This document shows, piece after piece, positions 1,674 to 4,453 of a DNA stretch of 4,707 nucleotides. This stretch comes from a virus. Its lineage: Duplodnaviria; Heunggongvirae; Uroviricota; Caudoviricetes. The position numbers were made by a program, and so were the translations under genes. The stretch's first letter is position 1; each line of letters starts with the position of its first letter. The stretch lies in the IMG/VR virus record IMGVR_UViG_2740892370_000009. One strand, written 5' to 3'. The notes under the pieces were generated by a model, which was not told the origin of the DNA, did no database searches, and saw nothing but the letters and a program-made list of their open reading frames with translations.

Positions 1674-2207
1674 ATGAGCAGGAAACTCCGCTATGGTTTA
1701 TCGGCTGCCGTTCTGGCGCTGATTGCCGCAGGTGCTTCTGCGCCTGAAATCCTCGACCAGTTTCTGGATGAAAAGGAAGGTAACCACACCACGGCATACC
1801 GTGATGGTGCGGGTATCTGGACCATCTGTCGTGGTGCCATTCTGGTGGATGGTAAACCTGTCGTTCCGGGCATGAAGTTGTCGAAGGAAAAATGCGACCG
1901 GGTTAACGCCATTGAGCGTGATAAGGCGCTGGCATGGGTGGCGAAAAACATCAAAGTGCCACTGACTGACCCCCAGAAAGCGGGTATTGCGTCATTCTGT
2001 CCTTACAACATTGGCCCAGGTAAGTGTTTCCCGTCGACGTTTTATAAACGAATTAATGCAGGAGATCGAAAAGGTGCCTGCGAAGCGATTCGCTGGTGGA
2101 TTAAGGACGGTGGCAGAGACTGCCGTATTCGCTCAAATAACTGTTATGGTCAGGTATCCCGTCGTGACCAGGAGAGCGCTCTGGCGTGCTGGGGAATCGA
2201 CAGATAA
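1674..2207 (+). CDS. R: SAR (signal-anchor-release) endolysin, T4-lysozyme-like muramidase (GH24), phage 21 R21 type
   Basis: RBS GGAGAG upstream of ATG 1674. N-terminus MSRKLRYGLSAAVLALIAAGASA is a basic cap plus an Ala/Gly-rich weakly hydrophobic segment, i.e. a SAR domain. Glu35, Asp44 and Thr50 (EGNHTTAYRDGAGIWT) fall exactly at the T4-lysozyme/R21 catalytic triad positions. There is no Cys in the SAR segment, which suggests the R21-type mechanism and not the P1 Lyz disulfide-isomerisation type. Stop TAA 2205-2207. Confidence 0.92.
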   Translation: MSRKLRYGLSAAVLALIAAGASAPEILDQFLDEKEGNHTTAYRDGAGIWTICRGAILVDGKPVVPGMKLSKEKCDRVNAIERDKALAWVAKNIKVPLTDPQKAGIASFCPYNIGPGKCFPSTFYKRINAGDRKGACEAIRWWIKDGGRDCRIRSNNCYGQVSRRDQESALACWGIDR

Positions 2208-2315
2208 GCAGAATATTTTGCTGAAAAATGACGTTGGCCAGCGCGGGCGGATAACACGAAATCCTGCGAACTGGCAAAATGTAAGTGAATAAAGTTAGGC
2301 AGATTATTTCACGCA

Positions 2316-2347
2316 GAGGCACCGTAATGGTGCCTTTGTCATTTCTG
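2316..2347 (+). terminator. Terminator-like hairpin in the R-ant intergenic region
   Basis: AGGCACC (2317-2323) pairs with GGTGCCT (2329-2335) around loop GTAAT, with a possible extra G-U pair (2316/2336), followed by the U-rich tract TTGTCATTTCTG. The T-run is interrupted, so termination efficiency is uncertain. Confidence 0.35.
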
Positions 2348-2481
2348 CGCTTCGCACAAGCGTAAATAAACCAAAGAACCTTTCAGGATGAGCCCTGGTG
2401 GATAACCGGCAGTGGTCTGGTTAACCCTCTTTGGGCTGGTTATTCCTGTGCGCAGGGTTCATCACTAAAAGGAAATAACCG

Positions 2482-3051
2482 ATGAATATGATGACCGTGC
2501 CGTTTCACGGCGATTCTCTTTATGTGGTTAACCATAACGGCGAACCATACGTTCCCATGAAACCTGTCGTTGCGGGGATGGGGCTGGCCTGGCAATCACA
2601 GTTGGCTAAGTTAAGACAGCGTTTTGCGTCAACTATAACGGAAATCGTTATGGTTGCTGAGGATGGGAAACGACGCAATATGGTGTCCCTGCCGCTTCGA
2701 AAACTTGCAGGCTGGTTACAAACCATCAATCCCAACAAAGTAAAACCCGAAATCCGCGGCAAGGTAATCCAGTATCAGGAAGAGTGTGACGATGTTCTCT
2801 ATGAATACTGGACGAAGGGTTTTGTCGTTAATCCCCGTCGAATGAGTGTGATGGAAGAACTCAATCAGGCTTGCGCTGACATGAAACGGGATAAAAACAT
2901 TGCCAGTGTGTTTGCTACCGGGCTGAATGAGTGGAAACAGGTTAAATCCGCGCATGTATCAAAAATCCGCACATTGATAAACGAAGCGAATCTGCTGATT
3001 GATTTTGTCCTGGCTGATACAGACAAAGGGAAAATAACAAAGGCGGATTGA
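2482..3051 (+). CDS. Phage antirepressor-like protein (Ant N-terminal-domain-like, AntA/P22_AR_N-type), 189 aa, embedded between endolysin and spanin genes
   Basis: RBS AAGGAA (2469-2474) 7 nt upstream of ATG 2482. Soluble protein with no hydrophobic segments. The N-terminal motif MTVPFHGDSLYVV..GEPYVPMKPVVAGMGLAW..QLAKL is what I recall for the N-terminal domain of phage antirepressor (Ant) proteins, and this gene position (between R and Rz) is known from Stx-type prophages. The family call is from memory, not a computed search. Confidence 0.75.
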   Translation: MNMMTVPFHGDSLYVVNHNGEPYVPMKPVVAGMGLAWQSQLAKLRQRFASTITEIVMVAEDGKRRNMVSLPLRKLAGWLQTINPNKVKPEIRGKVIQYQEECDDVLYEYWTKGFVVNPRRMSVMEELNQACADMKRDKNIASVFATGLNEWKQVKSAHVSKIRTLINEANLLIDFVLADTDKGKITKAD

Positions 3052-3200
3052 TGGAGTGGTGGCTAATGATATCGGATAAACTCATAACGCTGGCGAAGAT
3101 CCTCTGTGTAATCGTCGGCATTTCATTTTTAGTCATTCTGGTTGCCATTTTCTTTTCCACCGCTTGGCGAGTCCTGACGTTATCGGGACTGGTGGGGTGA
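3051..3200 (+). CDS. Candidate small hydrophobic membrane protein (49 aa; alternative start at ATG 3066 gives 44 aa)
   Basis: Its ATG (3051-3053) overlaps the ant stop TGA (3049-3051) in an ATGA coupling arrangement. Hand translation: MEWWLMISDKLITLAKILCVIVGISFLVILVAIFFSTAWRVLTLSGLVG, stop TGA 3198-3200, 7 nt before the Rz start. One strongly hydrophobic helix. It fills what would otherwise be a 156-nt gap in a tightly packed cassette. Below the ORF-track size cut-off. Confidence 0.4.
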   Translation: MEWWLMISDKLITLAKILCVIVGISFLVILVAIFFSTAWRVLTLSGLVG

Positions 3201-3207
3201 AAGAGAG

Positions 3208-3675
3208 ATGAACCGTGTTCTGTGTGTGGTGATTATTGTCCTGCTGGTAGCCTGTGGTGCACTTAGTCTGGGGCTGAATCATTACCGCGATAACGCCATA
3301 ACCTACAAAGAGCAGCGCGATAAAAAAGTCAGTGAGCTGGAGCTGGCAAATGCAACCATTACTGATATGCAGCAGCGCCAGCGTGATGTTGCTGCACTTG
3401 ATGCCAGATACTCGAGGGAATTAGCCGATGCGAGAGCTGAAAATGAAACTCTGCGTGCTGATGTTGCCGCTGGTCGTAAGCGCCTGCGCATCAACGCCAA
3501 CTGTCCAGGCTCCTTGCGTAAAGCCCCCATCACCTCCGGCGTGGATAATGCAACCGGTCCCCGACTGGCAGAAGCCGCTGAACGGGATTATTTCATCCTC
3601 AGAGAACGGCTGATGGCAATGCAGAAGCAACTGGAAGGAGCACAGGAATATATCCGTACCCAGTGTATACCGTGA
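3208..3675 (+). CDS. Rz: Rz inner-membrane spanin (i-spanin), 155 aa
   Basis: N-terminal transmembrane helix (MNRVLCVVIIVLLVACGALSLGL) followed by a long charged, predicted coiled-coil periplasmic domain (QRQRDVAALDARYSRELADARAENETLRADVAAGRKRLRI...). Contains an out-of-frame embedded lipoprotein gene, as lambda Rz does. Stop TGA 3673-3675. Confidence 0.9.
   Translation: MNRVLCVVIIVLLVACGALSLGLNHYRDNAITYKEQRDKKVSELELANATITDMQQRQRDVAALDARYSRELADARAENETLRADVAAGRKRLRINANCPGSLRKAPITSGVDNATGPRLAEAAERDYFILRERLMAMQKQLEGAQEYIRTQCIP
3428..3613 (+). CDS. Rz1: Rz1 outer-membrane lipoprotein spanin (o-spanin), 61 aa, embedded in the +1 frame of Rz
   Basis: MRELKMKLCVLMLPLVVSACAS has a signal peptide with lipobox V-S-A-C. 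The mature part is Pro-rich (CVKPPSPPAWIMQPVPDWQKPLNGIISSSENG), closely resembling lambda Rz1 as I remember it. It lies entirely inside Rz (3208-3675) in a different frame. Translation may start at ATG 3428 or ATG 3443. Confidence 0.85.
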   Translation: MRELKMKLCVLMLPLVVSACASTPTVQAPCVKPPSPPAWIMQPVPDWQKPLNGIISSSENG

Positions 3676-4138
3676 TGTTTTGTTACGAAGGTGTTACTGG
3701 TAACGTTAAGGTAATTTAACAAAGAGTCAGTTCCGGACTTTATAGTGTGCTCAGTTCATGGCCAAAAACGATTTCTGTGATAAATATTTTGAATATTATT
3801 TACAGGTAAATGGAGTGGGGCGCATGGATAGAAATATTACAATAGAGTATGAAGTATATGCCCGTATTGTATGGGCAGAGAAGGCAAAAACATGGTAATT
3901 CCGTGTGTTGCCATGATACCTGATTGGCAGAATTGTTGTTTGGTTTTGAGTATATAGTCAGCGTCTTTTGTTCGGTAATTGCTCTTTCAATTAAAATGCC
4001 AGATATGATTTGCTTTTCTTTGTTGTTTAGTTTTTTTGTATATTATTTTTATTGTTTTTATATAATTAGTTTTTTATTGTTGTCTTATTAAGGACGGTAA
4101 ATTCAGGATGGCAGTCTGTAGATAAACGGAGGTTACTT
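3676..4138. promoter_or_regulatory. AT-rich non-coding island (about 460 bp) upstream of the PerC-like gene; probable promoter / H-NS-type silencing region of a horizontally acquired moron
   Basis: No ORF of 61 aa or more on either strand. Composition shifts sharply from the flanking genes: 4021-4080 has only 7 G/C in 60 nt. Contains T-tract/A-tract repeats (e.g. TTTTTATTGTT recurring at about 4044 and about 4071) typical of curved DNA. The downstream gene has its own strong SD. Exact -35/-10 boxes cannot be assigned confidently by eye. Confidence 0.45.
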
Positions 4139-4453
4139 ATGCTACATGATCACCTGGCAGAATGTCTGGAGAAAAAAGGACTGTACCGGAGAGCAGCTGA
4201 ACGATGGGCAAAAGTGATGGTACAGCTAAGTGATGACCAGAAAAGAAAAGTGGCGGCACAGAAACGAGCAGAGTGTTTGCGTAAGGCGCGCCGGACTCCG
4301 GTTTCACCGGTGAACCTGACCGAAATAAAACAAGCGGTCAACAGACTACATTCTGAGTTGGGAATGGGATTTGAAGAGCGGCGGGTATTCCGACGATATA
4401 AAGGGACAGGAGAACAGAATACGTCCGGAAACGCGCGGTCAAAAAAATGCTAA
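4139..4453 (+). CDS. PerC-family-like transcriptional regulator (Pch-like prophage-encoded regulator), 104 aa, basic
   Basis: Strong RBS GGAGG (4128-4132) 6 nt upstream of ATG 4139. Small, highly basic protein (MLHDHLAECLEKKGLYRRAAERWAKVMVQLSDDQKRKVAAQKRAECLRKARR...). Size, charge and the RAAERWAKV-type N-terminal motif match what I recall of PerC/Pch regulators, which in enterohaemorrhagic E. coli are carried on lambdoid prophages downstream of the lysis genes. Stop TAA 4451-4453. Product assignment is moderate confidence; the CDS itself is well supported. Confidence 0.7.
   Translation: MLHDHLAECLEKKGLYRRAAERWAKVMVQLSDDQKRKVAAQKRAECLRKARRTPVSPVNLTEIKQAVNRLHSELGMGFEERRVFRRYKGTGEQNTSGNARSKKC

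Follow-up and report, generated by a model that had tools for sequence, protein, structure and literature searches.

orf49, a conserved gene for a predicted single-helix membrane protein between the endolysin and spanin genes of lambdoid Escherichia coli prophages

The virus record IMGVR_UViG_2740892370_000009 from IMG/VR comprises 4,707 nt, and this whole stretch of DNA, referred to here as the window, corresponds to late-region DNA of a lambdoid Escherichia coli prophage of the Shiga toxin (Stx) type. The genes of its lysis cassette are located on the plus strand and enclose a small open reading frame (ORF) at 3051-3200, designated orf49, which is the subject of this study. The cassette starts with S (1454-1669), encoding a phage-21-type class II holin (pinholin) of 71 amino acids (PF04971, E = 7e-33), and continues with R (1674-2207), which encodes a lysozyme with a hydrophobic N-terminus, i.e. 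an endolysin of the signal-anchor-release (SAR) type; an R21-like SAR assignment has been made for R of Stx phages (PMC8136144). A structured leader with a terminator-like hairpin and U-rich tail at 2313-2344 follows R and precedes an insert consisting of ant (2482-3051), which encodes 189 amino acids with P22_AR_N and ORF11CD3 domains and represents variable cargo, and of orf49 on its 3′ side. Thereafter, Rz (3208-3675; PF03245, E = 1e-46) encodes the inner-membrane spanin (i-spanin), and the embedded Rz1 (3428-3613; PF06085, E = 4e-19) the outer-membrane spanin (o-spanin) lipoprotein. The 1.3-kb stretch from ant to Rz is 100% identical in many chromosomes of Stx-producing E. coli, and at least 80% of it was found in 641 of 5,426 complete E. 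coli genomes as well as in 242 phage records, mostly of Stx-converting phages.

The coding sequence of orf49 extends from the ATG at 3051-3053 over 49 codons to the TGA at 3198-3200, in agreement with the size and position given in a first-pass annotation of this DNA, and its peptide reads MEWWLMISDKLITLAKILCVIVGISFLVILVAIFFSTAWRVLTLSGLVG. The tight fit in front of Rz described there was likewise found, the spacer to the Rz start at 3208 being 7 nt long (3201-3207). The junction with ant had been described as a four-base ATGA overlap; in fact, the ant stop codon (TGA, 3049-3051) and the orf49 start codon form the sequence TGATG and have one base in common (A3051). The single strongly hydrophobic helix that had been read from the sequence is borne out by the Kyte-Doolittle profile (grand average of hydropathy 1.68; mean of 3.27 in the best 19-residue window, residues 17-35) and by an AlphaFold2 model, which consists of one continuous helix from residue 2 to 44 with a mean predicted local distance difference test score of 88.8. 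A Shine-Dalgarno-like sequence, AAAGGCGGA, is located within the 3′ end of ant (3039-3047), 3 nt before ATG 3051, and pairs with the anti-Shine-Dalgarno sequence at -7.1 kcal/mol, which is as good as the pairing of the sites of S, R, ant and Rz (-5.6 to -8.1). Another ATG of the same frame, at 3066 (M6), from which an alternative form of 44 amino acids would be made (3066-3200), is preceded by the GGAG-type sequence GGAGTGGTG with a pairing energy of -6.0. Since 1.9% of mononucleotide shuffles of the 170-nt stretch yield an ATG-initiated ORF of at least 44 codons, the length of orf49 is only mildly unlikely by chance, and it is conservation that has to carry the argument for a gene.

Conservation was studied in 167 loci from IMG/VR and phage records, to which divergent homologs obtained through protein searches were added. 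The 42-codon core is free of stop codons and indels in all 167 loci (20 distinct DNA alleles), and at least 80% of the peptide is covered in one piece in each of the 276 phage records with a tblastn match. According to the Nei-Gojobori method, the pooled ratio of nonsynonymous to synonymous substitution rates (dN/dS) is 0.40 in the frame of the ORF, compared to 0.78 and 1.28 in the shifted forward frames, and drops to 0.24 in the transmembrane (TM) part. Against homologs with amino-acid identities of 52-74%, dS ranges from 0.54 to 0.86 and dN/dS from 0.21 to 0.35 (p between 7e-5 and 7e-3), while the other two forward frames give ratios of about 0.6-2.1. Two of these comparisons, with loci L176 and L173, resulted in dN/dS values of 0.21 (Fisher p = 7e-5) and 0.24 (Fisher p = 7e-4), respectively, both at a dS of about 0.8; in the shifted forward frames of these pairs the ratio is 0.9-2.1. 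Length and stop position of the family are kept across five contexts, namely next to an ant gene of the P22_AR_N type, an ant gene of the KilAC/ANT type, a 60-amino-acid TM ORF, a 31-amino-acid TM ORF, and in phiP27-like cassettes. Moreover, the small ORF is intact in four loci with a frameshifted ant and in four genomes in which ant is interrupted by IS1. Both conservation and a bias toward synonymous substitutions, which had been proposed as a check of this ORF, were thus found.

A different picture emerged for one lineage. The homolog in L170 (3749-3880, P0071) differs from that in L003 (2516-2644) by 17 nonsynonymous and 3 synonymous substitutions (dN/dS about 2.2), with length and TM character kept, and this pattern indicates relaxed or diversifying selection in the L170 lineage.

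The gene has been recorded before. An identical protein is present in RefSeq/PGAP as WP_000455402.1 with the description 'hypothetical protein', and the peptide matches PHROG 4906, a family without assigned function, over its full length (profile hidden Markov model, E = 1.7e-32; residues 1-49 aligned to all 49 profile positions); among the divergent homologs, P0064 and P0071 match the same profile at 2e-19 and 8e-11, respectively. An 88%-identical allele of 48 amino acids, located in the same position between ant and Rz, is known as BP-4795 ORF50, as EDL933_1392 from the re-annotation of EDL933 (supplement of PMC4765031) and as XECs191 of E. coli O157:H7 Sakai. The latter was listed as a 'novel gene' by Hücker et al. 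2017 (PMC5597208), and it passed the criteria for ribosome profiling (RIBOseq) in LB medium, with values of 30.0 and 12.6 reads per kilobase per million mapped reads in the transcriptome and translatome, respectively, a ribosome coverage value of 0.43 and a coverage of 0.55. The signal is on the sense strand, and the product was predicted to be an inner-membrane protein with one TM helix and received the classifier label 'real' (PMC5597208). In the records of 933W (NC_000924) and VT2-Sakai, the gap between ant and Rz has been left empty. The first-pass description of the ORF as unannotated thus applies to such older records but not to PGAP, which annotates the identical protein, and the remark that ORFs of this size are missed by annotation thresholds is right historically, although the family has meanwhile entered RefSeq, PHROGs and two translatome papers on enterohaemorrhagic E. 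coli (EHEC). In summary of these records, orf49 is a member of a known family of hypothetical proteins and not a new kind of element.

The family is narrow. Searches of Pfam and NCBIfam with orf49 gave no match, and an exhaustive search of 1.84 billion representative proteins with the profile hidden Markov model returned 28 matches, all belonging to the same family. The phage matches were all in phages of E. coli and Shigella, and the single match in a collection with one genome per species (L006, NZ_JPLE01000251.1, 'Xanthomonas pisi DSM 18956') is on a 328-bp contig that looks like E. coli contamination; PHROG 4906 is a family of E. coli and Shigella temperate phages. Roughly 2,000 E. coli genomes carry the gene. 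Literature searches for work on the function of the ORF between ant and Rz of Stx phages found none, and an accession search was likewise empty.

Taken together, the conserved frame, the synonymous bias in this frame and the strand-specific RIBOseq record of the Sakai allele, along with the retention across contexts, leave us confident that orf49 is a real protein-coding gene for a single-helix membrane protein, as had been supposed, and not a chance ORF.

The alignment of the family gave the consensus M[SP]DKLITLAKILCVIVGISFSLMLVAIF.S..W..L..SG[LM][LV]G, with K10, L11, I12, K16, C19, V20, V22, G23, F26, L30, V31, W39, L42 and G49 being invariant and S25 nearly so. Most alleles without ant are 43 amino acids long, start with MSDK and are located behind a strong GGGAGGA site, of which AAAGGCGGA in the window is a weaker homologue. 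The start of these 43-amino-acid homologs aligns with I7 (ATA, 3069-3071), one codon 3′ of M6, and the N-terminal extension MEWWL/MGWL is confined to ant-linked alleles. In the L030 class (three loci with a gap of 995 nt), the third codon is a stop (ME*WL), and only the start at M6 for the 44-amino-acid form is usable. Judged from these alignments, the conserved unit is a core of 43 amino acids, and the first five residues are not conserved, so that ATG 3066 may be the functional start in the allele of the window. The proposed translational coupling to ant is plausible locally, as termination followed by reinitiation, but it is not a property of the family: about half of the related loci lack ant, the gene being preceded there by other small ORFs and a strong Shine-Dalgarno sequence of its own, and the three loci with the stop at codon 3 do not fit it either.

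The surroundings of the gene vary in a characteristic manner. In 76 of the 152 loci for which both R and Rz were found, the gap between these genes has a length of about 1 kb and contains ant and the ORF. Further forms are a gap of 486-492 nt with a 60-amino-acid TM ORF (phrog_1115/4493) and the ORF (68 loci), a gap of 604-703 nt with further small TM ORFs (phrog_6632 and a 28-amino-acid relative of phrog_4493; 8 loci), and a gap of 289 nt with the 43-amino-acid homolog alone (1 locus). In the K-12 prophages Qin and DLP12, R overlaps Rz directly without any insert. In 156 of 164 loci, the stop codon of orf49 either precedes the Rz start by 7 nt or overlaps with it (GTGA, at a distance of 2 nt), and other ORFs separate the two genes in 8 loci. 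An S21-type holin and an R protein of 177 amino acids are encoded in the window, as they are in each of the 167 loci collected with close relatives. The most divergent homologs (L173 and L176, with amino-acid identities of 69-71%) are part of phiP27-like cassettes with the order Phage_holin_8, Phage_holin_3_7, GH108 endolysin, ANT-domain gene or 60-amino-acid ORF, 31-amino-acid TM ORF, 44-amino-acid homolog, lipoprotein (phrog_7528), HNH and terminase. The GH108 endolysin of these cassettes lacks an N-terminal TM segment (cytoplasmic type), and Rz is absent. In every context the gene is found 3′ of the endolysin gene and 5′ of Rz/Rz1 or a small lipoprotein gene. Within the variable accessory insert behind the endolysin gene of the late lysis cassette, orf49 is the part that stays constant, on the 3′ side.

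The lipoprotein following the orf49 homolog in L173 (4140-4322) and its counterpart L32 of phiP27 (L175 3019-3174) have a length of about 51-60 amino acids, a lipobox LLVGC and three further cysteines, and occupy the place where Rz/Rz1 would sit; an o-spanin-like function, exclusion or another role may be considered for them. The gap behind the endolysin gene is also a hot spot of unrelated, tightly packed micro-ORFs with a single predicted helix (L003 2319-2501; L004 1825-2365; L146; L173 3903-3998), which travel with the orf49 homologs in varying combinations. They comprise products of 60 amino acids (phrog_1115/4493; ...ISRALAFAIKWVAVGVAVSPMLYGLAKLVIALKS), of 31-47 amino acids (phrog_6632; ...WKFLLVWSIPFLWVVSQLIVAIKG) and of 28 amino acids (MSAELIRAMAFAIRIVAIAVLVWAIRWW). 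They share the location, the similar size and the single TM helix with orf49, but are not homologous to it (hhalign probabilities of at most 1.5%). In the IMG/VR contig L007 (R-Rz gap at 275-991), ant is joined in frame to orf49 by a frameshift close to its end (...DKGKYKGGLMEWWLMISDK...); the membrane-anchored Ant of 238 amino acids predicted from this fusion may be a genuine variant or stem from a sequencing error.

Concerning transcription, the segment 2208-2350 behind the R stop codon is highly structured (-51.3 kcal/mol; z = -4.0 versus shuffles) and ends in the hairpin with the U-rich tail. Its first 90 nt or so are common to relatives without ant, which have a stronger terminator at the same place, and a terminator-like hairpin behind the endolysin gene is present in all three contexts inspected (window, L003, L173). 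This leader had no match in Rfam and could be a small RNA derived from the 3′ untranslated region or an insulator of the insert; for the entire window, the only Rfam match was a chance snoRNA hit with E = 0.79. No sigma-70-like site was detected on either strand in 2100-3800 by a simple consensus scan, which is crude and could let a weak promoter escape. For XECs191, the Sakai study predicted only a weak promoter with a linear discriminant function (LDF) score of 1.7 (PMC5597208).

Because orf49 has no recognizable promoter of its own, is tightly spaced to its neighbours and has a terminator-like hairpin 5′ of it, the Q-antiterminated late transcript, which also covers S, R and Rz/Rz1, is probably the only source of the protein. 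The probable site of translation initiation is ATG 3051, through reinitiation after ant or the gene's own Shine-Dalgarno sequence, and/or ATG 3066. As the conserved lysines K10 and K16 are on the N-terminal side, the hydrophobic core (residues 17-36 approximately) would insert in an N-in/C-out orientation, placing the tail of 13 residues rich in Trp, Ser and Gly at the periplasmic face. The small residues C19, G23 and S25 form a face through which the helix may pack against that of another membrane protein or of a second copy of the peptide. In functional terms, the product would be an accessory, late-expressed inner-membrane protein and, as its most likely role, could act as a non-essential modulator of envelope disruption, tuning the timing or efficiency of lysis through a target that is not specific for a holin type; candidate targets are a host protein, the spanin step and the energisation of the membrane. 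With its predicted TM helix and its place between R and Rz, orf49 has the location and character to be expected of a regulator of lysis timing, and the position behind the endolysin gene is kept in two types of cassettes. As the gene occurs both with pinholin, SAR endolysin and Rz and with canonical holins, GH108 endolysin and no Rz, any target in lysis should be generic.

A precedent for such a role is provided by lysA of phage P2, which encodes a membrane protein between the endolysin gene K and the spanin gene lysB and is non-essential, mutants being shifted in lysis timing. LysA resembles orf49 in its membrane character and in the place of its gene within the late lysis operon; it is, however, about three times larger with several TM segments, and no sequence relationship was found, orf49 having no Pfam or NCBIfam match. 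By analogy of position, this precedent lends support to a function as lysis modulator.

Several observations weigh against the interpretation of orf49 as a translated gene with a role in lysis. The insert is dispensable for a lysis cassette, as seen in Qin and DLP12 of K-12. Morons that have nothing to do with lysis likewise typically reside in the late operon, and ant genes are hosted by the same gap. The substitution pattern between L170 and L003 suits relaxed or diversifying selection better than a housekeeping role in lysis, and the conservation of the C-terminal codons may in part reflect the ribosome-binding site of the downstream gene. Finally, the RIBOseq signal of XECs191 is weak and near the threshold, it originates from uninduced cultures, and mapping to multi-copy prophages may affect it. 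In view of both sides, we propose the function as lysis modulator tentatively and grant it somewhat less than an even chance.

The alternative that survives best, which we regard as possible but rather unlikely, is a moron-like cargo microprotein unrelated to lysis, acting for instance in superinfection exclusion at the inner membrane or in the modulation of host membrane proteins, with a gap that merely tolerates insertions. This would agree with the presence of two unrelated ant families and several small TM ORFs (phrog_1115/4493, phrog_6632) in the R-Rz gap, with the recurrence of the module in an unrelated cassette type, and with the high dN/dS of the L170 lineage relative to L003, as is often seen in conflict genes. 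Uninduced Sakai cultures furthermore contain detectable RNA and ribosome footprints, although such expression can stem from spontaneous induction. The anatomy of a moron, with its own promoter and a downstream terminator, is not what is found here: apart from the weak prediction in Sakai, no sigma-70-like promoter was detected between R and Rz by the simple consensus scan, the terminator lies 5′ and not 3′ of the gene, and Rz follows within 7 nt. In addition, none of the PADLOC defence models matched orf49, a divergent homolog or the neighbouring small ORFs at E <= 1.

A further reading takes the peptide to be functionless and the ORF to be a translational bridge, which would hold ribosomes on the late mRNA until they reach the Rz start after an insertion, or to be simply kept by linkage. 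The close spacing to Rz or GTGA overlap in 156 of 164 loci would suit such a bridge, as would the ribosome-binding site of Rz within the last codons of orf49 and the coupling of the orf49 start to ant. For this purpose, however, any open frame would suffice, yet dN/dS is 0.2-0.35 (p < 1e-3), and 0.24 in the TM part; besides, ORFs intervene between the gene and Rz in 8 loci, and the phiP27-like phages have no Rz at all. We therefore hold a mere bridge to be improbable.

The first-pass annotation had named antiholins and lysis modulators as roles that small membrane proteins in lysis cassettes can have. A protein dedicated to the phage-21-type pinholin S as its antiholin or regulator, or to the regulation of SAR-endolysin release, would be compatible with the S21-type holin and 177-amino-acid R in the window and all 167 loci of close relatives. 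The predicted stable TM helix could also pack on pinholin helices through its face of small residues. On the other hand, homologs with 69-71% identity are maintained under purifying selection in phiP27-like cassettes with Phage_holin_8, Phage_holin_3_7 and GH108 but without Rz, so that orf49 is not associated with a single type of holin, and S21/R21-type cassettes of K-12 prophages lack the gene. S21 itself already encodes an antiholin by means of a dual start. Because of the occurrence with non-pinholin cassettes in particular, a dedicated S21 antiholin is unlikely, and its probability is, if anything, slightly lower than that of the bridge. Small membrane regulators of SAR-endolysin-based lysis are known with the antiholin/pinholin S21-71 of phage 21 and the 'releasin' gp25 of phage Mu (PMC9239132). 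The window shares with them a lysis system based on a SAR endolysin, but homology is lacking, the TM segment of orf49 is very hydrophobic instead of Gly/Ala-rich as in SAR domains, and its homologs also occur with a non-SAR endolysin.

Very improbable is a true feature on the other strand (a 72-amino-acid antisense ORF at 2942-3160) or an RNA element: one antisense frame is indeed open across the core in 7 of 7 divergent alleles (pooled dN/dS 0.42), but this openness is explained by the NTN-rich sense codons, while start, stop and length (9 to 173 amino acids from the first start codon) of this frame change from one context to the next and it extends into neighbouring genes that are unrelated, so that it was rejected as a gene, and it is moreover opposed to the late operon, the RIBOseq signal published for Sakai belongs to the sense strand, and Rfam gave no match.

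Several other identities were considered and rejected. A leftover of a longer ant C-terminus does not apply, as phrog_4906, and none of the ant families, is matched by orf49, and the gene is also found behind complete ANT-domain genes and behind ORFs other than ant. A duplicate of the N-terminal TM segment of Rz or a paralog of the small TM neighbours was dismissed on hhalign probabilities of 0.1-1.5%. An Rz-like i-spanin would need a periplasmic coiled coil of about 100 amino acids, of which orf49 with only about 13 residues past the TM core has no equivalent, and the hhalign probability against Rz N-termini was 1.5%. A type I toxin locus (Hok/Ldr/TisB-like) is not apparent either, given that orf49 is an internal gene of the late operon, with no Rfam hit and no promoter detected on either strand by the consensus scan.

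Small membrane regulators such as MgrB, AcrZ, MgtS and SafA and type I toxins such as Hok and TisB have 30-50 amino acids and a single TM helix and act by helix packing or membrane perturbation. orf49 resembles them in size and in its single TM helix. Their genes, in contrast, belong to chromosomal or toxin-antitoxin loci with promoters of their own and, for the toxins, antisense RNAs, whereas orf49 is embedded in the late operon of a phage, and neither a promoter nor an antisense RNA gene was detected for it.

More speculative, and in our estimation unlikely, is the idea that orf49 and the unrelated microproteins of the gap (phrog_1115/4493, phrog_6632) constitute an unrecognised class of lysis modulators that are independent of the holin type. 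If true, such a class may act on membrane energisation, the spanin step or a host membrane protein and would tune the timing or completeness of envelope destruction, and hence the release of toxin and virions in Stx phages. Virions and toxin of Stx phages are both released under the control of the lysis cassette, which makes an uncharacterised but conserved membrane protein from this cassette a legitimate, if modest, target for a deletion experiment. Compared to the existing records of this family, the present analysis adds an explicit test for purifying selection, the delimitation of a conserved unit of 43 amino acids that is independent of ant, Rz and the pinholin, and the recognition of the gap behind the endolysin gene as a hot spot of several unrelated single-helix microproteins.

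Outside the cassette, the window starts with the C-terminal part of a DUF6645 gene (3-749). Just 5′ of the holin gene, DUF1378 (885-1064; 59 amino acids, one hydrophobic helix) and DUF826 (1105-1377; 90 amino acids) are encoded; small conserved uncharacterised proteins flank the lysis region on both sides, these two being on the holin side. Insertion sequences are present in some strains, namely IS1A in ant (H1-H4, e.g. NZ_CM147701.1 3754021-3756098) and IS600 in the DUF6645 gene (L001 897-2053), with orf49, R and Rz intact. The region 3900-4100 is very AT-rich and contains a hydrophobic ORF of 55 codons (3924-4091), which seems to be an artefact of base composition in a promoter or regulatory region rather than a gene. 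It is located 5′ of a gene for a PerC-family regulator (4139-4453; PF06069, E = 5e-44), which lies 3′ of Rz and and near-identical proteins of which appear among the 'novel' translated genes of the two translatome papers on EHEC, as X030 in EDL933 and XECs104 in Sakai.

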